Positions 52,255 to 63,616 are shown, counted from the first letter of the stretch. The stretch is 64,000 nt of DNA from an uncultured bacterium (GCA_963977015.1 CAXBMO010000001.1:1-64000), one strand, 5' to 3'. The notes: generated by a model from the sequence alone, not told the origin. A program made the numbers and translations.

Positions 52255-53919
52255 ATGGAGGAGCCCATTTCCACCGAGAAACGTCAGCAACTGCTGATCA
52301 ATGTGGCTCGTGATCTGAGCCGGACGGAGAATGTCGAGCAATTGCTCGATCAAATCTTGGAATGCTCTCGCGAGGTCATGGATTGCGAGGTTTGCTCCAT
52401 TTTGCTCCCGGAATTTGGAACGGGCGATCTTCTCATTCGGTCGACCAAGGATGAGCCGGGCCAGGAAGCGATTCGCGTACCGAAAGGGAAGGGGATTGCC
52501 GGCTATGTTTACGAGAACAAGATTCCCGTGAACCTGGAGGACGCCAAGACCGACCCGCGCCACTTCGCCGAAGTCGGCTCCGAAATCGGGCTCATTACCC
52601 GGAATATGCTCACCATCCCGCTTCTCGATGGGGAGCGCTGCCTCGGCGCGATGCAGGCGATCAACTCGAAGCATCGCGAGAAGTTTGCGGAACCGGACGA
52701 AGAGATTTTCGAGACGTTCGGTGCCTTGATCGCCGTGACCTTGATTCGCCTTGAGTCGCAGCAAAAGTCGATCCGCGAAGCCGAAGTTCGCCAGCAACTC
52801 GAGTTGGCCCACGAGATCCAGGCCTCGTTTCTCCCGCCGATGGAAGCCAAAATCGGCCATATCAAACTGAGCGCGCTCTACGAACCCGCCGCCGAAACCG
52901 GTGGCGACTTTTTCTTCTGGCACGAGTTGGATGATAAAAAGGTCCTGCTCGGGATTGGCGATGTCTGCGGAAAGGGCTTCCCCGCCGCGCTCGATATGGC
53001 GCGAGGAACCACCCTGATCGCCAGCCTTTCGCACCGGGCATCGCGTTTTCCGCTGCATGAATGGGTAACGGAGGTGAATGGCCGCCTTTGCGATGTGATG
53101 AGCAGCGGGCGCTTCATCGCCTGTGCCTTCCTCCTCATCGACCTCAAGAAACGCATCGTCAGTGTCTGCCTTTGTGGCGCCCTTCCGCCCAAGGTACTGC
53201 TCGGTGATCACTGGGAAGACGTTCCGGTGACGCCCAATCCGCCGCTCGGGATTTCCTGCTCGTTCGGCTACAAGGCCGAAACCTTTTCCCTCGCCGCGAG
53301 CCGATCCTGGATGGTGCTTTCCGACGGAATTCTCGAAACCCAGAATGAGAAGGGCGAGTATTTTGAGGAAGGCCCGTTTGACGAGGTCATGGCGGCCATC
53401 GCCGCGAATGGAGACCCGGATATTCTCGGAACGCTGACCCGCGTCTGGAAGGAGTTTTCCAAAAACGCGACCTATCAGGACGACACCACGGTCTTGCTGT
53501 TCGAGGACGAGTTTCCGCGTCCCGCGCCCATTTTTGACTTCACCTGTTCGCCGGAATCCATCGTCAAAGGGCGTGAATTCGTGGAGGAATGGGCCAAGTT
53601 CTGCGGGATGGATGAAGAAACTGTGGGGATGGTGGTTTTGGGCTGCGATGAATTGCTGACGAATGTCTCCAAGCACGCCTACTGCGGCAACGGACCGGTC
53701 CGGATTCACGCTTCGGCGGATTTGGATGGCTTGGAATTCCGCATCGAGCACGCTGGAGCCGGGATTGCGAACGAGGACGTTCCCGAGGTCAAAGTGAAGA
53801 CCGAGCCCACCGTCGGCAAAATGGGCATGGGCGTGATCCACACCATCTTTGATGAAGTGGATTACCAAAAAGGCGAGGGTGCTTCCTCCGTGACGGTAAC
53901 CAAGCGGGTTGAGCGCTAG
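52255..53919 (+). CDS. GAF + SpoIIE/PP2C phosphatase + RsbW-like HATPase_c fusion
   Basis: GAF (GKGIAG, DPR.F, P.L, INSK, F...D); PP2C GGDF, GDVCGKG, SDG..E, DDTT; HATPase ELLTN..KHAY, GMG. Confidence 0.88.
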   Translation: MEEPISTEKRQQLLINVARDLSRTENVEQLLDQILECSREVMDCEVCSILLPEFGTGDLLIRSTKDEPGQEAIRVPKGKGIAGYVYENKIPVNLEDAKTDPRHFAEVGSEIGLITRNMLTIPLLDGERCLGAMQAINSKHREKFAEPDEEIFETFGALIAVTLIRLESQQKSIREAEVRQQLELAHEIQASFLPPMEAKIGHIKLSALYEPAAETGGDFFFWHELDDKKVLLGIGDVCGKGFPAALDMARGTTLIASLSHRASRFPLHEWVTEVNGRLCDVMSSGRFIACAFLLIDLKKRIVSVCLCGALPPKVLLGDHWEDVPVTPNPPLGISCSFGYKAETFSLAASRSWMVLSDGILETQNEKGEYFEEGPFDEVMAAIAANGDPDILGTLTRVWKEFSKNATYQDDTTVLLFEDEFPRPAPIFDFTCSPESIVKGREFVEEWAKFCGMDEETVGMVVLGCDELLTNVSKHAYCGNGPVRIHASADLDGLEFRIEHAGAGIANEDVPEVKVKTEPTVGKMGMGVIHTIFDEVDYQKGEGASSVTVTKRVER

Positions 53920-53924
53920 ACCGT

Positions 53925-55319
53925 CTAAAATGGCCGGATGTTGGTGATCCATTCGCGAAAACCGTCCCACAAGGTGGGGCCTTCCTGCTTCAGGACCAAC
54001 GCGTTGTGTTCCGATTCAATCCCAAGTCGATGCCCTTCATAGCGATTGCGAAGGACCTTCAGCACCTTGGTTGGCGTCGTGTTGCGGCGTTCGATGTTCT
54101 CGATGTCCTCGGAAAACGGGATCAACAGATTGGAATCGAGTTCGACGGCATCTGCGGCCAGATCAAACAGATCGAAAACGTCCATCGAGTTGACCACCGG
54201 GATGTTCACCTCAAACAAATTCCGGGTTGATCGAGGGTTCGGCATGAAAGGCAGTGCTTCGATGTCGAACCAGACCCGGGCGCGTTGGGGATAACAGACG
54301 ATTTCGATCGGGGCGTCGGCCATCGGGAGTCGAGCGGCTTGAATCCGCGGTTTTCGCTCAAACCAGGCGCGCGGAAACCGGAGTGATTCGTCAATTCCCT
54401 GGTAGCGAAAATGGCACTGCTCTGCCCAGACGGCAGGACTAACCCGGCCCAGGACAAAGCGCAGGTCATTATCCGGAACAAGATCCCAGGTTTCTCCCCG
54501 TCGCCCGACCTCGCGCACATCGTTTGGTCCCGACGCAATGAACTGAAAGCGGACTCCGGATTCGAGCACAATCTGGTCGCCCGCTTTGGTCGGAATGGCG
54601 GCAACATCAGGCGTTCCGCATGGCAACTCAAGCATGATTTGGATGGGCGTATCGTGCCAGATCTTGAGCTGAATGTCGGCAAAGCGGACAGGGCCGGAAC
54701 GCTTCACGGAGCCTGAAATGACGGGCCAATGGGTTCGGCGGTCGAACGCCTCCACTTCGCCATCCCAGGTTCGAAGTCCACTCCCGGCAAAAACGAGCCG
54801 CAGAACCGGTTGCTGAACCGGATCATTGAGGAATTGGGGGGCGATCGGCGGCAACTCGGGAAACCCGGGAACGGTCTTGCCCGTTTTCGGATCAAAATAT
54901 CGCAGCACTTCCTCATCTCCCGGAATCCAAAGTCCAGTCGCCGCCAACTCGATCTCCAACTCACCTGGCAGCGTTGCGATCGCTCCCTTTGCCTCAATCA
55001 TCAGCGCCCCCACTTCGCCCCCGTGCGAACGCGGCGGCTCAATCAAACGCCGCTGAATCCAGATATCGCGCTCCCCAACTTCGACATCGGGAATGCTGTA
55101 GGGCGGCGAATGCTCCGGGGCTTTTGGAGGGGGAGGATTGCGGGCGTTTCCCCATCGATCGAACTGTGGATCTTCAAACTTTCGGACTGCGGTCGCCGAA
55201 ATAGACCAGGGCGACTCGATTGCTCGAAGTGCGACGCTCACGAAGCCCAACACGAGCAGGCCTGCCGCCACCCAACGGATGTGGAGCCGTTCGGACAAAT
55301 TGAGGGCGCGCTCGATCAC
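53925..55319 (-). CDS. Hypothetical membrane-anchored protein
   Basis: 464-aa ORF, GTG start, N-terminal TM; fills the gap between convergent and co-oriented genes; no family recognised. Confidence 0.7.
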   Translation of the reverse strand: MIERALNLSERLHIRWVAAGLLVLGFVSVALRAIESPWSISATAVRKFEDPQFDRWGNARNPPPPKAPEHSPPYSIPDVEVGERDIWIQRRLIEPPRSHGGEVGALMIEAKGAIATLPGELEIELAATGLWIPGDEEVLRYFDPKTGKTVPGFPELPPIAPQFLNDPVQQPVLRLVFAGSGLRTWDGEVEAFDRRTHWPVISGSVKRSGPVRFADIQLKIWHDTPIQIMLELPCGTPDVAAIPTKAGDQIVLESGVRFQFIASGPNDVREVGRRGETWDLVPDNDLRFVLGRVSPAVWAEQCHFRYQGIDESLRFPRAWFERKPRIQAARLPMADAPIEIVCYPQRARVWFDIEALPFMPNPRSTRNLFEVNIPVVNSMDVFDLFDLAADAVELDSNLLIPFSEDIENIERRNTTPTKVLKVLRNRYEGHRLGIESEHNALVLKQEGPTLWDGFREWITNIRPF

Positions 55320-55361
55320 GCCGACGTTTTACCCCAAAATGGGCCGATCGTATAGTCGGCT

Positions 55362-56066
55362 CTACCCGAAGCGCTTTCGCAGCTTGCCCAGCTTCGCCAA
55401 CACCCGCCCGCGCAAGGTCCCCAAATGCTGCAGATCGCGCGGTGGCTCGCCAAAGCGCTCGCGATAGATCCCCCGCCACCGCTCCACTTGTGCGATAAAG
55501 CGCCAATCCGTCTCAATAAACGAGCGCAGCACATACATCGGAACCGGCGAACGCAGCGCAAACAACTTGGGATCAAACGTCGACGCAAACGGGCAGGTCG
55601 GGAAAAACTCCCCCACCAAAATTCCGGACTCCAGCATATCCCCCTTCAGATCCCGGCTCGCATCCGTCGCATCCAGCAGCAATTGGCCCGTCGTCTCCGG
55701 AAAAATCGCCACCACCGTCTTCGTCATTGCCGCCGGCATCTCCATCGGCTCCAACTCATTGAAAATCCGGGCAAACCGTCGCAACTCCCCATCAATTGCC
55801 CCGATATTGTTCGGTGCCGCCAACTGCGCCAACGCAAAATGCATCGTCTCCCGCTGAATCGCCGGCTCCACGAACGGGCAAATCGCCTCCGTCCGTCCAA
55901 ACTTCACCACCTTTCGCGTTGGGAAATCCGCCACCCAATCGCGAATCTTCACCAGCGCCTCGCGCTCCACTGTGGAGAGCAAATCCAACTTCATCGGATC
56001 ATCACAATCATTGGGCAGAAACAACAGCGGCTCCGCCATCGCGGCAGACTCAGAAATACCAATCAT
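55362..56066 (-). CDS. Hypothetical protein with CPF motif (DUF6875-like)
   Basis: GR..AICPFVEPA near N-terminus; G.LVGEF.P, RSP.P...LR....D.RF; strong codon periodicity. Start may be 56039. Confidence 0.65.
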   Translation of the reverse strand: MIGISESAAMAEPLLFLPNDCDDPMKLDLLSTVEREALVKIRDWVADFPTRKVVKFGRTEAICPFVEPAIQRETMHFALAQLAAPNNIGAIDGELRRFARIFNELEPMEMPAAMTKTVVAIFPETTGQLLLDATDASRDLKGDMLESGILVGEFFPTCPFASTFDPKLFALRSPVPMYVLRSFIETDWRFIAQVERWRGIYRERFGEPPRDLQHLGTLRGRVLAKLGKLRKRFG

Positions 56067-56120
56067 GGCCTCCAGTTTAGCAAACGGAGAAGGTGTTTAA
56101 AAGATCTTAATTATCAATTT

Positions 56121-56169
56121 ATCTGAAACGAGGGACCACGCTCCGTCGACGAAGCATCGCCCTCCAGAT
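56121..56169. repeat. REP-like imperfect palindrome
   Basis: ATCTG..GAGGG-ACCAC-GCTCCGTC|GACGAAGC-ATCG-CCCTC-CAGAT; nested arms 56130-34/56160-64 and 56140-47/56148-55. Confidence 0.45.
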
Positions 56170-56284
56170 GCGTGCGGCAAAGTTCAAAGCGAGGGAGATC
56201 GCCACGCTGTTGACCGATTTGGTAGCCGGAGTTTGGTGCGCTGAAGACCCGCGTTATCAGGGCTGATTGCGGCGGTGCGCGCGA

Positions 56285-56620
56285 CTACCCGACTTTCTTC
56301 ACGAACTGGGCTTTGAGGCCGATGGCGATGCCGTCCATTTTGCAGGAGATTTCGTGATCGCCATCGACGAGGCGGATGGGCTTGGATTTGGTGCCGACTT
56401 TCAGGACTTGGGAGCTGCCTTTGAGCTTGAGGTCTTTGATCATGGCGACGATGTCGCCTTGGGCGAGGACGTTGCCGTCGGCATCTTTGACGATGCGTTC
56501 TTCTTCCTGTATCTCCTCGGTTTCGCGCGACCATTCGTGGCCACAGGTGACGCATTCGTAGTGGTCGGCGAGTTCAAGGATTTCGTCCATGGTGCACATG
56601 GGGCAGGCGGTCTTGCTCAT
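56285..56620 (-). CDS. PhnA/YjdM zinc-ribbon protein
   Basis: CPMC, C.TCGHEW, KDADGN.L..GD.V..IKDLK.KGSS..LK.GTK, LKA.FVKK; ATG 56620. Confidence 0.9.
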   Translation of the reverse strand: MSKTACPMCTMDEILELADHYECVTCGHEWSRETEEIQEEERIVKDADGNVLAQGDIVAMIKDLKLKGSSQVLKVGTKSKPIRLVDGDHEISCKMDGIAIGLKAQFVKKVG

Positions 56621-56722
56621 AGGCTGGGAACCATGGCGAAGCGATGGTCCGGGGCAAGAAGGGAGTTTCCTGAGCCGCAATTTTCCGGTTCCGTTTCCGG
56701 GGTTTGCGGGCTAGCGGTAGCG

Positions 56723-57991
56723 ATGCCCAATACGTTTTATGGTGCGTTTGATGTTGAGACGCTGAAGGATCGGCCGCCGGGAAAGGGGGAGTTTCGGACG
56801 CAGTTTCAGATCGATCGCGACCGGATCATCCACACGTCGGCGTTTCGCTCGCTGCAGAGCAAGACTCAGGTTTTTCTGTCGGGGGAGTATGATTTTTACC
56901 GGACGCGGCTGACCCATTCGATTGAGGTAGCGCAAATTGGCCGATCCATTTGTGCGCGGCTGAATCATGAAAGCGAGGCGTTGCGGGAGGACTACCAGAT
57001 TGATCCGGCGTTGGTGGAGGCGGTATGTCTTTCCCACGATATTGGGCATCCGCCGTTTGGGCATTGCGGGGAGCGGACGCTGAATCGGCTGATGCGGCCT
57101 TACGGAGGGTTTGAGGGCAATGCGCAGACGTTGCGCCTGCTGACGCGGACGATTTTTGATGACCGGGGGATGGTGCCGAGCCGGGGGTTTTTGGATGGGG
57201 TGCTGAAGTACAAGACGTTGTTCAGCGAGTTGGAAAATCCGGTGAACCATTTTGTGTATGATGAGCAGGCGGAGTATCTGGATTTCGCGATGGGGGGGCG
57301 CGATTTTCCGCCGGAGCTGACGCCGGGCAAGCCGCGTGATGCGTTTCGGTCAATCGAATGCCAAATTATGGATTGGGCGGATGATACGGCGTATTCGCTG
57401 CACGATGTGGCGGATGGGATTGCGGCGAAGTTCATTTCGATCGAGCGACTGGAGCGCTGGGCGGAGGCGCAGGAGGATCAGGCGAAGGTGGCGCCGGTGG
57501 TGGAGGGAATTTTGAAGAATATCCGCGATGAGAAGATTGAGGGGCGCACGGGGCAGCGCATCGGGATGCACATTGCGGCGTGTTCGTTGGCTGATGACGT
57601 GAATTTCATGAGCCCGAGTTCGAACCGGTATCGCTACCGGCTGGAGATCGATCCGCAGATTCTGAGCGAGTGCAAGATCTACAAGCGAATCGCGTTTGAC
57701 CTAGTGTTTCGCTCGCAGCAGCTTCAGCAGTTGGACCGCAAGGCAGAGCACATTTTGTCGCGCTTGTTTGCGGCGTTTGCGGAGTACTACATTGAACCGG
57801 AATCGCGGCGTGCGGATCACATGCATCTGCTGAGCCCGAAGGAGGAGGCTGCGATTTGGAAGGTGGAGTCGAGGCGTGAGCGGGCGCGGTTGGTTTGCGA
57901 TGTGATTGCGAAGATGACGGATGGATTGGCGACGCGAACGTATAAGCGGCTTTTTGATGCAGATTTTGGCTCGATTGTTGATTTGGTTTAG
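56723..57991 (+). CDS. dgt: dGTP triphosphohydrolase
   Basis: DRDRIIH..AFR.LQ.KTQVF, RTRLTHS.EVAQI, HDIGHPPFGH, FEGNAQ, ADD.AY..HD, D.IA.MTD; ATG 56723. Confidence 0.92.
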   Translation: MPNTFYGAFDVETLKDRPPGKGEFRTQFQIDRDRIIHTSAFRSLQSKTQVFLSGEYDFYRTRLTHSIEVAQIGRSICARLNHESEALREDYQIDPALVEAVCLSHDIGHPPFGHCGERTLNRLMRPYGGFEGNAQTLRLLTRTIFDDRGMVPSRGFLDGVLKYKTLFSELENPVNHFVYDEQAEYLDFAMGGRDFPPELTPGKPRDAFRSIECQIMDWADDTAYSLHDVADGIAAKFISIERLERWAEAQEDQAKVAPVVEGILKNIRDEKIEGRTGQRIGMHIAACSLADDVNFMSPSSNRYRYRLEIDPQILSECKIYKRIAFDLVFRSQQLQQLDRKAEHILSRLFAAFAEYYIEPESRRADHMHLLSPKEEAAIWKVESRRERARLVCDVIAKMTDGLATRTYKRLFDADFGSIVDLV

Positions 57992-58011
57992 GTTTTAGTT
58001 AGGAGTTCACA

Positions 58012-58431
58012 ATGACTGCGTCCGAACAGCAACAGCTCGTCGAAGACTATGTCTTGATCGAGAATCCGCAGGAGCGTTTCGGCTTGTTGGTGGCGCGTTC
58101 GTCTCCATTGGCGCCGTTGGAGGAGGCGGAGAAGATTGACGAGAATTTGGTTCCCGGCTGCATTTCCCAGGTTTGGTTGGCGGGGAGTCTGGAGGACGGG
58201 CGTTGCCGGTTCCGCGTCCAGGGCGACTCGACGGTTGTCCACGCCGTTGCCGCGTTGCTCTGCGAGTGGTTTGACGGGTTGACGCCGGAAGAGGTGTTGA
58301 ATTCGCCGAAGAACCTTCTCGACCAGCTCAAGATTTCCAGCCAGCTGTCGCCCACCCGCCGTCGTGGAATGGGGCAAGTGGTGACAAAAATTTGCTCGTT
58401 GGCAGAAAGCTGGCATTCTACTCCATCATGA
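58012..58431 (+). CDS. sufE: SufE-family Fe-S sulfur-transfer protein
   Basis: VPGCISQVWL, GDS, LSPTR..G. Confidence 0.9.
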   Translation: MTASEQQQLVEDYVLIENPQERFGLLVARSSPLAPLEEAEKIDENLVPGCISQVWLAGSLEDGRCRFRVQGDSTVVHAVAALLCEWFDGLTPEEVLNSPKNLLDQLKISSQLSPTRRRGMGQVVTKICSLAESWHSTPS

Positions 58432-59003
58432 CCAAAATCCTCGCCTTTGCAGGCAGTGCCCGGAAAGATTCCTTCAACAAAAAGCTCGCTGTGATTGGGG
58501 CGGACAAGGCCCGTAGTTTTGGGGCTGAGGTGACATTGATCGATCTCGCGGATTACCCGATGCCAATTTACAATGGTGATTTGGAAGAAACGGACGGGAT
58601 GCCGGAAAATGCGCTGGAGCTTCATGGAATGATGATGCAGCACGACGCGCTGATGCTGGCGTGTCCGGAGTACAATGGCTCGATCACTCCGTTGCTGAAA
58701 AACACGATCGACTGGATTTCGCGACCGACGGAAGACGCGGGGCCGGTTGCGGCGTTCAAAGGAAAGATTGCGGGGTTGATGAGCGCTTCTCCAGGGGCGT
58801 TGGGCGGAATGCGCGGACTCGTCCATGTGAGGGCAATTTTGAGTGGAATTGGCGTTCTCGTGGTTCCCGGAGACGTGTCGGTGGGAAATGCCTATGACGT
58901 TTTTGACGAGGATGGGAGTTTGAAAGACGACAAGCTTGAGGCGCGGCTCTCGAATTCCGTGAAGAGTCTGGTTGAAACGGCTTCACGCCTGGGGAGCGAC
59001 TAA
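58428..59003 (+). CDS. NAD(P)H-dependent FMN reductase
   Basis: GSARKDSFN, PEYNGS...LKN.IDW.SR, SASPG..GG.RG; ATGA overlap with sufE. Confidence 0.92.
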   Translation: MTKILAFAGSARKDSFNKKLAVIGADKARSFGAEVTLIDLADYPMPIYNGDLEETDGMPENALELHGMMMQHDALMLACPEYNGSITPLLKNTIDWISRPTEDAGPVAAFKGKIAGLMSASPGALGGMRGLVHVRAILSGIGVLVVPGDVSVGNAYDVFDEDGSLKDDKLEARLSNSVKSLVETASRLGSD

Positions 59004-59107
59004 AAATGATGACGGACGTCATTTTCAAACCCACCCTAAATGGCGACGCCGGTTGAGGGTGGTAGTGGACTTTACGGTCGGAATGGGCGAGAATAACGCG
59101 TAAACTC

Positions 59108-59560
59108 ATGCGTCCAACCTCCCCCATGATCAGGATCGCCCCATTCTTAGCAATTGCACTCACCCAGCTGTTCGCGATGAGCGTTGTCTCGGCCGACGTT
59201 TCCGCGTTGGGATACTGGGAATTCGATACCGATCGCCGCGAAGTCTACATCGATTCCGTCAAGGCTTCGCAGATCGACACGACCAGTATGTCGGAAATCG
59301 CAGCCCAGATGGGGATGGCGAAAATCCAGAATTCCATCTACGAATTTGGTTTCGACAAGGAAGGCCCCTATCTGGAGATCAAAGATAAGGCCAGCAATCG
59401 TTGGGAAATGATTCGCCTCAAGGTGGAGGTAGTCGATGGGAAGCTGGCGATGAAGAAACTGGAGAGTGGAGATCGCTTGCGAATGGAGCCCATTGACAAC
59501 GATCACATGACCTTGATTGACGAAGGCAAAAAGCTGAAAATCCCACTCCGCCGGATTTAG
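59108..59560 (+). CDS. Secreted hypothetical protein
   Basis: Signal peptide and G.W.F motif near the mature N-terminus; start 59108 or 59126. Confidence 0.65.
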   Translation: MRPTSPMIRIAPFLAIALTQLFAMSVVSADVSALGYWEFDTDRREVYIDSVKASQIDTTSMSEIAAQMGMAKIQNSIYEFGFDKEGPYLEIKDKASNRWEMIRLKVEVVDGKLAMKKLESGDRLRMEPIDNDHMTLIDEGKKLKIPLRRI

Positions 59561-59575
59561 AGCTAAAGTTGTTCT

Positions 59576-60253
59576 CTAGGATTTGACGGATCGGACCATG
59601 CCGAGCAGGCCTCTCAACATGAGGAGAAGGAAGACGAGGGCGACCAAAAGTCCCACGATATAGAGACACCATTTGAGGATCGTCATCCCGCGCAACCACT
59701 CTCGCAAGGGCAGGTGTTTCCAGCGAAGCTTCTTTGCGTCCTCAGCCACGAAAACGAGTTTCGTTTCCGGGTTGTTGAACATCGACTGGTAGATTGCTGC
59801 GTCGCTCCCTGCGGCAGAGATTTCGCGAATCACGGTTTCACCCACTCCCTCCGTACCGAGGTTGAAACTGCTGATGACGCCGCGTCCCGAACCACCTGGG
59901 CTGTAGCGTACGATATCAGCGCCTCCGTTTCGTTTTTTGATGGCTGAGGCCTTCTGATGAAATTCGATTGGAGCTCCAGTGGTCAGCTCGTCGATCCGCT
60001 CATAACCTCCACCGGGAAGGGAGCGGTAGAGAACCCAGATGTTACCCTGGCGGCCATTGACGGTGTTGTTGTAGGTAAGCAGAATCTCGGGAACGCCATC
60101 GGCATTGAGATCGGGTTCCGTTTTGATGACGTCCTTGGGATCTTGAACATCGAAGTTCAGCAGGAAATCCCGCATCGGATTCGAAATCGGATTTGCCGAG
60201 GCGACTGCGATCTGACCTAGAAACAATGCGGCGATGATGATGGGAATTTGCAT
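59576..60253 (-). CDS. Secreted protein with C-terminal membrane anchor and DxNxDG Ca-binding-like loop
   Basis: Signal peptide; DLNADGVPEIL; hydrophobic C-terminal helix; starts 3 nt after the upstream stop. Confidence 0.7.
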   Translation of the reverse strand: MQIPIIIAALFLGQIAVASANPISNPMRDFLLNFDVQDPKDVIKTEPDLNADGVPEILLTYNNTVNGRQGNIWVLYRSLPGGGYERIDELTTGAPIEFHQKASAIKKRNGGADIVRYSPGGSGRGVISSFNLGTEGVGETVIREISAAGSDAAIYQSMFNNPETKLVFVAEDAKKLRWKHLPLREWLRGMTILKWCLYIVGLLVALVFLLLMLRGLLGMVRSVKS

Positions 60254-60256
60254 CAG

Positions 60257-61723
60257 TTACTCCTCAATGGGCATATCACCTTCTATCTCGTGATGAACCA
60301 CCTTGTAGACATAGTTGTTTCGGTTCTTGATAAACTTCCACCGTTTCCCACTGGGGTTGCCTGGATAGAACTGCCAACAGCTTCGGTAGTAGGACCAGGT
60401 GTTGTAGCGGTTCTTGAGTTTGCGAACCACCGCAGCGCCATTGTAGAGTTGCATGATGCTGGCCTCTTCCCCGGTTAATGTGGTTTTACAGCCCGGAGGT
60501 TTATAGGTCTTTGGTGGTGCTTCCCACTTGGTTGGATAGGTCTTCTTGATTGCGTCGAAGTACTTCTTCGTGTCCTTCTTTGCGGTTTTCAGTTCTTCCA
60601 AGCCTGCCTTGATGTTGACCCGCCAGTCCCAGACTTCTTCGGTGGTGACTTCTTCCCCTCTTGCGGAATCAATCTGGAAGATGCCCCAACCATCCGGTGG
60701 ACCGAAGTTTGGTTCGAACGCAATGTTGCCGGAACTGTTGAACTGGTTAAAGACACGCTTGTTCTGGCGGCTTTCGTGTTGGGAAATGGCCCAGGCAAAC
60801 CAGAACGTCTCGCCCTGAGTTTTCTTGATGTAGGCTTTGGCGCTTTCGTCGCGAGGGTTCCGGCACTTGATCTGGAAGGGGCGCGATCCGGCGTGGATAT
60901 AGTCTCCATTGTCGTCCTGAATCTTGAAACTCAACTTTGCCTCCCCGCCGAAATAGCGTTCATGATAAGTGGCGTAGGCCTTCCAGGCTTCGTCTCCCGC
61001 GACGTCCAGCCAACCCTTTTCCGGAAACTGGATCTTGTCGCGATCGCCGCGGCGGCCATAGCGACTTTGCATGAGCCAGTGCACGGTGTATTCCGTCGGC
61101 AAGCCTTCGATTCTGGCTTCGAGCCGGGGCATGATGGGGAGGTCAAATGAGTCGGCCTGATAGTGGGTCAGCCACGCCGTGTCGCCGTCCCCAATCGTGT
61201 CGTCGTCTCCGGGACTAGTCAGATCGCGAAGGTCGACCAACTGGATGTCGGCGCACCGAATCTGGAACGGAGCGGTGGATCCGCGCTCTGCGTCGGTCGA
61301 ATCGACCTCGGCAAAGAGCTCGACGGGATGATCCGAAGTTCGCTGATGGGAAACCTCAAAGGCGAGTTTCCCCTGATGCTGTCCCAGACCAAAATAGTTC
61401 GCATAGTACCATTTGTCGGGACTGACACTCAGACGGCGGCGGCTTCCGGCATGAAGCGCTACCACATTGACCGGCGTTGTTTGGTCCGCGTTGCCGTCGG
61501 CGGCCTGACGGGCAACAAAGCGCATTTGCACGCCTTTCCAGACGGCGGATTCGCTCGGGTGAGCGACAACCTGGACTTCGGCGGTAGCTGATTGACCGGG
61601 AAAGAGGAGCACGCTCGGCTCATCGAGATCGAAACTAATACTGAGCGAAACGGATTTCTCTTGTGCGGAGACAAGGGCCGTTAACGCGAGGGAAATGAGC
61701 CAAACGGAGAGGATTCTGGACAT
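60257..61723 (-). CDS. Secreted protein with C-terminal lysozyme/transglycosylase-like domain
   Basis: Signal peptide from ATG 61723; AISQHES, GWGIFQI, W.W..NI.AG, YNG motif series as in SLT-like folds. Confidence 0.65.
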   Translation of the reverse strand: MSRILSVWLISLALTALVSAQEKSVSLSISFDLDEPSVLLFPGQSATAEVQVVAHPSESAVWKGVQMRFVARQAADGNADQTTPVNVVALHAGSRRRLSVSPDKWYYANYFGLGQHQGKLAFEVSHQRTSDHPVELFAEVDSTDAERGSTAPFQIRCADIQLVDLRDLTSPGDDDTIGDGDTAWLTHYQADSFDLPIMPRLEARIEGLPTEYTVHWLMQSRYGRRGDRDKIQFPEKGWLDVAGDEAWKAYATYHERYFGGEAKLSFKIQDDNGDYIHAGSRPFQIKCRNPRDESAKAYIKKTQGETFWFAWAISQHESRQNKRVFNQFNSSGNIAFEPNFGPPDGWGIFQIDSARGEEVTTEEVWDWRVNIKAGLEELKTAKKDTKKYFDAIKKTYPTKWEAPPKTYKPPGCKTTLTGEEASIMQLYNGAAVVRKLKNRYNTWSYYRSCWQFYPGNPSGKRWKFIKNRNNYVYKVVHHEIEGDMPIEE

Positions 61724-61801
61724 CGAACGGGGGAGCCGCGGATGGGCGTTCGCTGAACTCAAGGTGAGCAGAATTTTCGCGAACAATCCAGATTGGTTTG
61801 C

Positions 61802-61843
61802 AAAAAAAGAACCGCTTGGCATTTCGCATGCCAAAAGCGGTTC
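61802..61843 (-). terminator. Hairpin with U-tract: probable terminator of the DUF1232 gene; also contains a sigma-54-like element
   Basis: GAACCGCTTGGCAT-ttcgc-ATGCCAA(AA)GCGGTTC preceded by A7. Confidence 0.5.
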
Positions 61844-61878
61844 GAGATTCATCCTAAGAGAGTCGCCAATCTTGGGAA

Positions 61879-62172
61879 TTAGTTGTCAACGACCTTTCCT
61901 TTGACGGTTTTTTCGGTCGTGGTTTCCTGGGTAGTTCTGGCTTGCTCCCCTTTGTCAAAGAGCGATTTGAGCTTGCCGACCGGGATTCCCAGATAGTTGA
62001 GGCAGGCGAGGAAAATGCCCGCAGCAGCGGCTTCATCGAGCCAGCCGAGAACCGGAACAACATCGGTGGGATCGGGAACAAAGATCCAAGCTAGTGATAG
62101 GAGGCCAACGAAGCTAACCGCCACTTTCTTGACGAGCGGTTTGGGTTCCTGGCTTTCGGGGGAGTCTGTCAT
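61879..62172 (-). CDS. DUF1232 (YkvA-like) small membrane protein
   Basis: PDP.D.VPVLGWLDE motif; ATG 62172. Confidence 0.8.
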   Translation of the reverse strand: MTDSPESQEPKPLVKKVAVSFVGLLSLAWIFVPDPTDVVPVLGWLDEAAAAGIFLACLNYLGIPVGKLKSLFDKGEQARTTQETTTEKTVKGKVVDN

Positions 62173-62290
62173 GGTGAAACTGGGATAAGGTGAGGGATAA
62201 AGATAGGATCGGCCCATTTCTGAATCAGGCCAAGCCATTTCTTTGGTTGATGTGGTCCGGTTCAACGGACGAATTTTGCCCCGGAACCAT

Positions 62291-63616
62291 TCAGTCCCCA
62301 GCCATCAGAGCCTCAATGTCGTCCGCTTCGATCGGCACGTTTTCGAGCAGGTCCACGTTCCCCCCGGAGGTGACGACGACATCGTTTTCCAGTCGAATTC
62401 CAAAACCTTCCTCAGGCAGATAGATTCCCGGCTCAATCGTGTAAACCGCACCATCTAGCACGATGCGATTGGCGGGCGTCACATCATGAACGTCGAGACC
62501 CAGGCTGTGTGAGGTGCCGTGCATGAAGTACTTTCGATAGGAGCGGTTTTCCTCTTTCATTTCCTCTTCCGTGCCGTCCTTGGCCCGTTCCTCCGCCACG
62601 TTGGCTGGATCGAGCAGGTCCAAGCTCAGCAACTCCGCCTCCATGCTTTTGCCGACTTCCTTCTGGTAGGCTTTGATCTCGACGCCGGGTTTCAGAAGTT
62701 CCGCGCGGCAGGCTTTGAAGACGTTCAGCACCGCATTGTAGACCGCGCGTTGGCGATCGGTGAATTTCCCGTTCACGGGGATCGTTCGGGTTAAGTCTGC
62801 GTTGTAGTGCGCATACTCCGCCGCGACATCGAGCAACAGCAAATCGCCGTCCTGGCAGGTGTCGTTGTTGTCGAGGTAGTGCAGGACACAGGCGTTCCCA
62901 CCGGATGCAATGATGGGATTGTAGGCAAAGCCGCGCGAGCCATGTTGCATGAACTCATGGATGAATTCCGCTTCGATTTCGTATTCCTTCACCCCGGGTT
63001 TGAGAAAGTGACAGACCCGGCGGAAGCCCTTTTCGGTGATGTCGCACGCCTTGCGGAGAAGCTGGATCTCCGTCTCTGATTTTGCGGCGCGGAGAGGGTA
63101 GGTGAGGGGAGCCAGACGCTCGTAGCGATGCTGCGGATACCTGGTTTGGCAGTGTTGGCGAAAGCGTTCTTCCCGGGTTTCGACCTCGCTGGCATTTCGA
63201 GGATGCTCATTGGCGTTGAGGTAGAGCGTTTTCCAATGCTTCATGCAGCGGCGAAACTGGCTTTCGAAGCGATCCGACCACATGACGTTCGTGATGCCCG
63301 AAACGGCGGTGGCGTCCTCGGCGGTCAGTTTGTTGCCTTCCCAAATCCGAATGAGGTCGGAGGTTTCCCGAACGAACAACATCTCCCGATCCGCGGGATC
63401 CGTGGCGTGGGGATTGAGAATCAGGGTGGTTTCCTCCTGATCGACGCCGGTCAGCCAAAACAGATCGCTGCTTTGGTAAAACCGCATCGATCCATCAGCG
63501 CTTTGCGGCATGATGTCGTTGGAATGAATCACGGCGAAACTACCGGGTTTGAGCTTGGCAGCGAGTTTCGCCCGGTTTTCGACGAAGAGCTGGGAATCGA
63601 TGGGATCGTAACGCAT
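62291..63616 (-). CDS. pepP: Xaa-Pro aminopeptidase (M24B)
   Basis: KS..EI..., VLHY, D......ADLTRT, HG.SH.LGLDVHD, TIEPGIY, GIRLE.D. Confidence 0.93.
   Translation of the reverse strand: MRYDPIDSQLFVENRAKLAAKLKPGSFAVIHSNDIMPQSADGSMRFYQSSDLFWLTGVDQEETTLILNPHATDPADREMLFVRETSDLIRIWEGNKLTAEDATAVSGITNVMWSDRFESQFRRCMKHWKTLYLNANEHPRNASEVETREERFRQHCQTRYPQHRYERLAPLTYPLRAAKSETEIQLLRKACDITEKGFRRVCHFLKPGVKEYEIEAEFIHEFMQHGSRGFAYNPIIASGGNACVLHYLDNNDTCQDGDLLLLDVAAEYAHYNADLTRTIPVNGKFTDRQRAVYNAVLNVFKACRAELLKPGVEIKAYQKEVGKSMEAELLSLDLLDPANVAEERAKDGTEEEMKEENRSYRKYFMHGTSHSLGLDVHDVTPANRIVLDGAVYTIEPGIYLPEEGFGIRLENDVVVTSGGNVDLLENVPIEADDIEALMAGD

Follow-up and report, generated by a model that had tools for sequence, protein, structure and literature searches.

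We analysed a window of 64,000 nucleotides (nt), the stretch G000:C1:1-64000 of a marine Verrucomicrobiales genome (G000; 6.89 Mb, 51 contigs, 55% G+C), and observed that the base composition of its two strands switches abruptly and locally at a 218-nt spacer (56067-56284) that lies between a gene for a DUF6875 protein and the genes phnA and dgt. C-numbers denote contigs of G000; G001, G002 and G003 are congeners; G011, a member of the same family, G031 and L055, L089, L091, L098 and L108 are other Verrucomicrobiales DNA. In 300-bp bins, skew at third codon positions is given as the index (G+T-C-A)/N, read on the + strand.

To the left of the spacer lies the DUF6875 gene (55362-56066, minus strand; Pfam PF21780, E 8e-34), which an earlier model-made reading of the sequence, hereafter the original prediction, had mistaken for a CPF gene. 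Its coding-strand third positions (A14 C33 G139 T49) make its own strand G/T-ending and the + strand C/A-rich. Immediately to the right, phnA/yjdM (56285-56620, minus strand; Pfam YjdM, E 3.4e-25) is C/A-ending on its own strand (A20 C68 G19 T5) and G/T-rich on the + strand. It is followed on the + strand by dgt (56699-57991), which encodes a dGTPase-like HD phosphohydrolase with Pfam HD and HD_assoc domains, makes up most of the right arm and is G/T-ending (A23 C68 G234 T106), and then by sufE (58012-58431; Pfam SufE) and a gene for an NADPH-dependent FMN reductase (58422-59003; Pfam FMN_red). The minus-strand DUF6875 gene is therefore the mirror image of phnA and dgt, which lie on opposite strands and have one G-rich + strand in common. 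The bias tracks position and DNA strand, and agrees with the original prediction that it does not follow coding strand. In none of the three genes are the first or second codon positions unusual.

In bins of 30 codons, the left arm forms a plateau at 55497-56034 (-0.55 to -0.83 in six consecutive bins); further out, one bin at -0.30 is followed by values of ~-0.1. The right plateau (56345-58152, mostly +0.33 to +0.90) spans phnA and dgt and ends a third of the way into sufE. It dips at 57595-57682 (0.08) and at 57955-58062 (0.12), and the non-coding pieces within it lean the same way (56621-56698, G27 C19; 57992-58011, G5 C2). Bins of 300 bp gave -0.68 and -0.64 in 55500-56099 and +0.46 to +0.68 across 56100-58199, followed by 0.04, 0.40 and 0.18 and then background, and finer bins agreed. 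The skew stops within sufE, between bin 57900-58199 (+0.53) and bin 58200-58499 (0.04). The bias covers ~0.65 kb on the left side of the spacer and ~2.1 kb on its right side. Weaker patches of the same sense reach 54.9 kb on the left and 58.8 kb on the right. The left one is a C-rich third-position patch (54915-55092; (G-C)/(G+C) -0.78 and -0.40 on the + strand, with bins of ~0 on either side) inside a hypothetical 464-amino-acid (aa) gene, hyp464 (53925-55319, minus strand), that has no Pfam match; the right one lies in the FMN reductase gene (bins 58514-58781 at +0.38 to +0.55, then ~0). The cumulative G-C curve has its minimum at 56070-56170, within the spacer, and is flat there.

We confirmed that this two-sided switch at 56.1 kb is real, and found it to be larger than originally described. 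GC skew in 1-kb windows changes from -0.185 (55001-56000) to +0.133 (56001-57000), +0.299 (57001-58000) and +0.179 (58001-59000), against a background of mostly +0.02 to +0.15 in the window and ~+0.05 on contig C1; genome-wide, 44 of 27,368 such windows have an absolute GC skew of at least 0.29. For gene-level comparisons we used 4665 genes from our own crude caller, which sees first and second codon positions only and is therefore blind to the third-position bias under study. The DUF6875 gene and the open reading frame of dgt form the largest jump (1.03) among 4357 adjacent gene pairs. The former ranks first for G/T-ending among 4137 genes of at least 150 codons, and the latter, as called, 11th of 4555 (dgt proper has a third-position index, GT3, of 0.58). 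On its own strand, phnA has a value of -0.57 to -0.59, below that of every called gene (minimum -0.53). phnA itself is absent from the called set because the caller preferred the frame 56267-57991 (+ strand), a 574-aa open frame that crosses phnA in antisense and continues into dgt. The dgt Pfam domains begin after 56699. We read this frame, which the codon bias keeps open, as a by-product of that bias and not as an extension of dgt. Automatic annotation could likewise lengthen dgt or lose phnA through the same frame.

We next consider the bases involved. The bias is a partition of G versus C between the two strands. At four-fold degenerate sites, dgt has G 0.73, C 0.10, T 0.09 and A 0.08, the DUF6875 gene has G 0.68, C 0.17 and T 0.04, and phnA has C 0.89, compared with genome values of C 0.38, G 0.33, T 0.16 and A 0.12. 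A bias toward T or A is confined to two-fold codons, where no other alternative to C or G exists. The original prediction had proposed that each strand reading away from the site gains C>T and A>G, and this chemistry does not hold: a transition-only process cannot lift four-fold purines from 0.45 to 0.81, and T is depleted (0.09 and 0.04 against 0.16) while G takes 0.68-0.73, so that pyrimidine-to-purine change or selection is needed. Compared with the orthologue in G003 (89% aa identity), the third positions of dgt differ by G +88, C -54, A -36 and T +2; first and second positions are unchanged.

Substitutions were also polarised, as had been suggested. On the G000 branch, 17 of 19 changes go toward G/T, including eight C>T, five C>G and three A>G. 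These parsimony counts are weak and composition-biased, since even the comparison with the closest congener is nearly saturated at third positions (54% identity at conserved residues, measured for dgt only). A metagenome scan found no relative between 100% and 66% identity, and the 78 differences to a strain from sequencing run X4 are unpolarised.

Expression is unlikely to account for these values. The ribosomal-protein operon has four-fold values of C 0.34, G 0.27 and T 0.27 and GT3 of ~-0.2 to +0.3, and fusA has 0.33. Translational selection, or expression level as such, was rejected because this operon and fusA do not have the bias. A transcription-associated asymmetry that scales with expression was rejected on the same genes, which are not extreme, and on phnA, which has the opposite sign.

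Other ordinary causes fared no better. A chromosomal origin (oriC) was rejected: GC skew on contig C1 is +0.02 to +0.07 in all thirteen 50-kb windows, thus positive on both sides, 1-54 kb is mostly positive, and the sole Bac_DnaA match above the cut-off lies on another contig (C8:1371-1853). Two TTATC-containing words in an A+T-rich stretch of the spacer are weak DnaA-box matches by eye. These data bear out the view that the switch is local and unlike a replichore switch. A recent inversion was rejected on synteny, since hyp464 follows the DUF6875 gene on the same strand in G003 and G002, and the DUF6875 gene and dgt are divergent neighbours 140 bp apart in G001, in the same orientation as here. 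A chimeric assembly join was rejected since a contig assembled from run X4, which belongs to a different study, spans 55973-56128 and 56238-56371 and bridges the DUF6875 gene to phnA. Study P1 contributes short identical contigs at 55873-56181 and 56274-56696; the 7719-nt Tara scaffold L118 matches 54578-62296 exactly and was not counted as independent, as it may stem from the same data. The original prediction had named an ordinary origin, an inversion breakpoint and a chimeric join as sources that could mimic its site, and the switch is none of these. Chance adjacency of codon classes would be the last ordinary cause, and the ~230 short blocks of extreme third-position bias in the genome mean that extreme genes are not unique. 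However, the genome's extremes of G/T-ending and C/A-ending and the gene ranked 11th of 4555 stand side by side here, and we consider it very improbable that chance, translational selection, an origin, an inversion or an assembly artefact explains the locus. Known mechanisms do not explain the switch.

The congeners inform on the history of the arms. Orthologues of dgt in the three congeners (82-89% aa identity) have GT3 of 0.16, -0.01 and 0.08, and those of the DUF6875 gene (73-86% identity) 0.01, 0.12 and -0.03; the closest to each (89% and 86%, respectively) are unbiased genes of G003. A bias intrinsic to the genes was rejected on these grounds. The lack of bias in the congener genes, together with first and second codon positions that have not changed, shows that the bias is recent in this lineage and speaks for an origin in place. 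With our query, phnA was not found in the three congeners and was found in two of 12 relatives searched, where its orthologues are unremarkable (GT3 0.15 and -0.19). Given the 140-bp spacing of the DUF6875 gene and dgt in G001, phnA is, by gene order, a lineage-specific insertion between them, at the switch.

To place the locus in its genomic context, we scanned G000 for jumps in third-position skew, as the original prediction had proposed. Up-jumps have the polarity of an origin, with the + strand C-rich on the left and G-rich on the right, and down-jumps the reverse. Local C-to-G switch points were recovered in clear excess. Among third-position bins there were 219 up-jumps and 15 down-jumps at a threshold of at least 0.6, and 44 and 0 at 0.8; among the 4357 gene pairs, 28 and 5 at 0.5, and 14 and 1 at 0.6. 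Gene identities at the top jump pairs were verified with Pfam, and the asymmetry was repeated without gene calls (43 up and 11 down at 0.35; 20 and 2 at 0.4). The 56.1-kb switch is the strongest of the few dozen origin-like flips in G000. The mean profile of 20 sites shows an abrupt jump with ~3 kb of decay on each side, and the genes that flank the other sites encode ordinary enzymes (CysG, ROK, DAHP synthase, CoaBC, TrmB, QueF and others).

Up-jumps occur at similar rates in the four orientation classes of gene pairs (10/1237, 9/1532, 5/798 and 4/790) and are equally common between convergent and divergent genes. The GC skew of spacers tracks the third-position skew of their flanks (slope 0.41 +/- 0.03 over 1956 spacers; 0.15-0.34 in seven of eight orientation-by-replichore classes). 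This regression overtook two early non-coding tests, and a reading in which the bias is restricted to coding DNA was dropped. Neighbours of extreme genes that lie in the opposite orientation have the same + strand sign in 31 cases and the other in 12. Since spacers follow their flanks and opposite neighbours mostly share a sign, we conclude that the pressure targets nucleotides, and for the most part the DNA strand, rather than the choice of tRNA. The genome-wide replichore effect is small, with leading-strand genes at +0.02 on average and lagging-strand genes at -0.14.

A pressure on nucleotides could also be exerted through RNA. The Rho factor prefers C-rich, G-poor RNA, and the bias might be selected as an insulator between transcription units: RNA that leaves a boundary would be G-rich and C-poor and RNA that approaches it C-rich and G-poor, giving Rho resistance at transcript starts and Rho sensitivity at ends and on antisense RNA. 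Several features fit such selection: the axis is purely G against C, with A/T bias at two-fold codons only; the bias extends to the synonymous first position of Leu codons and to spacers; co-directional pairs more often have a C-ending upstream and a G-ending downstream gene than the reverse (17 vs 2 at a downstream-minus-upstream difference of at least 0.5, in 2589 pairs), mainly at gaps of >100 nt; and G/T-ending declines weakly from 5' to 3' within genes, from +0.05 to ~-0.02, a trend we saw in all three length classes. In addition, the skew on the CysG side of another switch site, known from all-position skew only, persists in G001, where CysG is 87% identical in protein. However, divergent neighbours of extreme genes mostly have the same + strand sign (22 vs 6), so that one is G-ending and the other C-ending, unlike two 5' ends. 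The average jump at transcription-unit boundaries is ~0.01-0.02, the housekeeping gene dgt swings from +0.58 to -0.70 among relatives, and the phnA mRNA would be the most Rho-prone of the genome. Selection on transcripts therefore appears unlikely to us.

The same signature is found on a larger scale in other Verrucomicrobiales. In seven other genomes, the four-fold sites of dgt are 0.87 G, or 0.72-0.94 C; GT3 of dgt among relatives spans the range just given, with the lower extreme (-0.70) in G011. In L089, L091 and L098, spacers and genes of both orientations are skewed alike. The genome G031 (G031:C1:1-168656 and C2:1-60000) has 5-kb windows at +/-0.3 to 0.43 in a mosaic with low-skew blocks. 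Extreme all-position skew over tens of kb was seen in L089, L091, L098, L108, L055 and G031, with 87-94% G or C at the four-fold sites of dgt and broken by low-skew blocks of 10-35 kb, and the sign changes near G031:C1:153 kb, ~10 kb upstream of dgt. Because the signature extends across tens of kb in relatives, a strand-level process with a G-versus-C signature exists in the order; in G000 it is globally weak and locally strong. In 304 kb of G031 and G011, up-jumps outnumbered down-jumps by 10 to 3. For other genomes we used the gene-free scan, since jumps between gene pairs there (8 up, 7 down) are unreliable, being partly mis-framed calls. RNase HI is present in G000 and in three of four other genomes checked, and gave no lead.

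We tentatively favour, with a probability of roughly 0.38, a substitution bias that is anchored at the site, runs outward and acts at the level of the DNA strand, with either DNA synthesis or divergent transcription and its R-loops as the motor. The spacer 56067-56284 would anchor a bias that acts on the DNA strand and not on codons, and the strand that reads 5' to 3' away from it would have turned G-rich and C-poor at nearly all free sites, on both sides. This geometry would arise most simply from a polymerase that initiates again and again at the spacer or close to it and travels outward. The candidate motors are DNA synthesis primed at the spacer or divergent transcription with R-loops, either of which would treat the two strands unequally, and the resulting two-sided local bias would resemble a miniature replication origin. 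The outward polarity that the original prediction had put forward is indeed that of the observed pattern. The share of TTR among Leu codons, 0.38 in G-ending genes against 0.07 in C-ending genes, also favours this explanation. We observed the pattern, its polarity, rarity, coding-strand independence and recent origin in this lineage, and the genome-wide polarity excess; that a site-started process is the cause, and which polymerase would drive it, we infer. Models based on a double-strand break with 5' resection ('kataegis-like') and on SbcCD acting at a hairpin were rejected on polarity, by reasoning only.

A number of observations weigh against this explanation. Classical single-strand deamination does not yield 0.7-0.9 G at four-fold sites with T depleted. 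Neighbours of extreme genes are weakly skewed on average (means 0.02-0.09), so that many blocks are gene-sized, and non-coding DNA within 2.5 kb of 28 sites has a skew of 0.065 in the sense of the arm. Within the spacer, blastn and Rfam revealed no repeat and no known RNA, and a promoter and terminator consensus scan of 55300-56800, covering sigma-70-type sites only, called nothing. Our jump scans cover Verrucomicrobiales only, and in 79 pooled loci of other members of the order the gene-free scan at 0.35 or more gave 7 up-jumps and 5 down-jumps. Three further points of this kind, namely the shape of the arms, the synteny breaks at switch sites and the persistence of skew on one side of such a site, bear on a second explanation and are given with it.

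In this second explanation the arms are pieces of DNA with differing skew histories that were juxtaposed by insertion, rearrangement or recombination, and the spacer is their junction and not the source of the bias. The pieces could be DNA from a strongly skewed relative, for example, or blocks that keep the skew of their own transcription unit. Strongly skewed genomes with the same four-fold signature do occur within the order, and also within the family of G000 (G011), and G031 is itself a two-state mix of high-skew and low-skew blocks. The arms are plateau-like and patchy in 30-codon bins, with no smooth decay, and end inside genes, as recombination tracts do. Moreover, the three switch sites that we compared with congeners, with no matched control spacers, are all synteny breaks: the phnA insertion at the present site; the second-best site, C6:102.9 kb, whose flanking genes are 138 kb apart in G001; and a C30 site, whose G-ending gene has no close congener orthologue (best 48%). 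At the C6 site the skew on the CysG side is common to G001 and that on the CoaC side is not, so that the CysG-side skew travels with the gene. The later congener comparisons, among them that of skew at the C6 site, rest on all-position skew and not on codon-level data, and the comparison for the ROK gene was uninformative. Repeats and mobile-element ends also lie at junctions. On the other hand, random blocks would give equal numbers of up-jumps and down-jumps, and the observed excess (28 vs 5, 20 vs 2) is left unexplained. The dgt and DUF6875 genes are nearest to unbiased G003 genes and stand in ancestral order, so that they were not imported from any sampled skewed genome; and phnA matches its arm, yet its orthologues are not extreme. 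We regard such a mosaic as possible but less probable than a bias arising at the site.

A bolder form of the site-anchored explanation would apply to whole chromosomes of some Verrucomicrobiales: DNA synthesis or long-lived single-stranded DNA would repeatedly spread 1-3 kb in both directions from a few dozen fixed sites, which would act as local mini-origins or fragile sites. We consider this rather doubtful. If it were true, these sites would partition G and C as strongly as mitochondrial DNA does and would at the same time be hot spots of insertion, of small mobile elements and of rearrangement. The relatives' extreme domain-wide skew would then be the same process on a larger scale, and the 56.1-kb spacer its clearest case.

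We also examined the spacer for a trigger. An A+T-rich stretch, read from the sequence (56096-56125), lies 30-60 nt upstream of the DUF6875 start and is possibly the promoter region of that gene. Just 3' of phnA, on the minus strand, is a terminator-like hairpin without a T-run (56121-56169). The terminator scan did not call it, as its tail has too few T. RNA folding of 56112-56178 (minus strand) gave -26 kcal/mol (z = -2.0; 5 of 200 shuffles equal or better), and for the spacer as a whole the fold does not beat shuffled sequences (z = -0.52). Most likely, the hairpin simply marks where the phnA transcript ends. A blastn-short search of 56067-56284 against the genome found the spacer itself and otherwise matches of 20 nt or less. 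An Rfam search of L015, which covers the spacer, returned no family, and a search of 12 switch loci plus the focal locus (114,302 bases) gave 0 matches.

These results bear on the trigger in the original prediction, in which a HUH/RAYT nuclease nicks a REP-like hairpin at 56121-56169 and strand displacement leaves the C>T and A>G footprint. Its core, a two-sided strand effect that depends on position, has been retained; its chemistry and its REP/RAYT trigger have not. The hairpin and the whole spacer are single-copy. The genome does carry 15 Y1_Tnp (PF01797) matches, but none lies within 280 kb on C1, the nearest being at 339606, 283 kb away. In the strain of run X4, 109 nt (56129-56237) that include most of the hairpin are swapped for 52 other letters. 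The arms of this strain are 96-99% identical to the window, and identity varies between 92-94% at 54.7-55.7 kb and 98.6-100% at 56.4-58.5 kb; the skewed arms are thus near-identical in a strain that replaces most of the hairpin. Four-fold T is not enriched, which speaks against a transition-only footprint. In favour of the nuclease, its outward polarity suits strand displacement, two Y1_Tnp matches (C6:129896 and C7:187393) lie within ~0.5 kb of other switch sites, and a 133-nt Y1-adjacent repeat and a palindromic array are found in four other up-jump spacers. As an account of the 56.1-kb site, we judge this model highly unlikely.

Repeats are nevertheless a lead at other sites. They occur in 13 of 40 up-jump spacers, compared with 261 of 2529 spacers overall and 1 of 14 at down-jumps; from gap-length bins, ~5 were expected for the up-jump spacers. 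This enrichment, which is partly tied to Y1 genes, is the remaining lead toward the RAYT direction. One family is a palindromic unit of ~30 nt that forms a REP/BIME-like array of 4-5 copies at ~45-nt spacing (C31:32324-32584) and is also found at C36:11269, C30:69763-69834 and C12:4653-4671, all in spacers that are up-jump sites. The second is the MITE-like 133-nt family, with full copies in up-jump spacers that lack a transposase (C4:53678-53810 and C21:54772-54904) and partial copies at C16:25208, C41:19387, C29:8157, C27:19479, C18:40933 and 41910, and C28:71541. Two of the partial copies lie ~150 nt from Y1_Tnp genes (C16:25398 and C41:19597).

At the level of abstracts, the literature held no description of local origin-like skew switches, nor of such extreme skew in Verrucomicrobia. 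The switch resembles the GC-skew switch at oriC in its C-rich left and G-rich right polarity, its independence of gene orientation and its G-versus-C signature, which is that of the domain-wide skew in related genomes. It differs in that it spans ~0.65 + 2.1 kb and not a replichore, in the positive skew on both sides on C1, in the position of dnaA elsewhere and in a local GC3 skew of ~0.6, far above the replichore effect of G000 (+0.02 vs -0.14).

N-domains show sharp upward skew jumps without matching downward jumps. They and human strand asymmetries share with the present sites abrupt up-jumps with flanking decay, an excess of up-jumps and a two-sided polarity at a short element. Bidirectional asymmetries of this kind were described at human CpG-island promoters and origins (Polak & Arndt 2009, PMC2817419). 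Those patterns are eukaryotic, extend over tens to hundreds of kb, are small in amplitude and are dominated by transitions, whereas the present switch is bacterial, extends over 1-3 kb and has silent sites nearly saturated with G or C.

Transcription-associated asymmetry and R-loop GC skew, together with divergent transcription from symmetrical bacterial promoters (bioRxiv 10.1101/2020.01.31.928960; PMC12825309), offer a parallel in that the DUF6875 gene and dgt point away from the spacer and both of their coding strands are G-rich. In contrast, phnA sits on the opposite strand within the right arm and has the reverse coding bias, operons with high expression show no extreme values, and convergent up-jumps are as frequent as divergent ones. 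Reversal of GC skew in single genes has been read as recent gene inversion (Merrikh & Merrikh 2018, PMC6220195), and the DUF6875 gene is indeed a lagging-strand gene with a leading-strand-like G excess. However, order and orientation are kept in congeners, and the amplitude is beyond what an inversion could carry in G000.

The amplitude of the silent-site partition is comparable to that of mitochondrial DNA, with the difference that four-fold T is depleted here. In vertebrate mitochondria, the asymmetry between heavy and light strands arises with strand-displacement replication, and deamination (C>T, A>G) of DNA that stays single-stranded for long is held responsible for it. We know of no compositional footprint of oriK sites, at which R-loops prime constitutive stable DNA replication. 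This replication has been described in E. coli mutants (PMC7045392; PMC12000880). It resembles the favoured site-anchored process in that bacterial DNA synthesis starts away from oriC at transcribed sites, and differs in being known only in RNase H or topoisomerase mutants and from few broad regions; G000 has RNase HI.

Strand skew in bacteria is usually read as the direction of replication from a single origin, with transcription as a minor term. At the present site, G or C makes up 70-90% of silent sites over 1-2 kb, and the sign changes abruptly at a spacer. If the cause is mutational, a strand-asymmetric process that has not been known so far acts locally in G000 and domain-wide in relatives, and sequence alone could map DNA that is repeatedly single-stranded or re-synthesised. 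If it is selective, the silent sites of entire genes would be recoded so as to adjust how much G and C their transcripts contain. Either way, the bias breaks inferences of inversion, horizontal transfer or expression level from per-gene skew or codon usage, and it creates long false antisense frames such as 56267-57991.

Two further genes were noted. Left of hyp464, the window holds a + strand gene (52255-53919) for a GAF-SpoIIE(PP2C)-HATPase_c_2 fusion, which combines a phosphatase with an anti-sigma-like kinase domain according to Pfam and has an open 587-aa shadow frame on the opposite strand. A C-ending gene (C8:149252-152653; L005:1253-4654) that lies directly upstream of a further skew up-jump encodes a protein of 1133 aa with an N-terminal TIR domain (TIR_2, ThsB_TIR).

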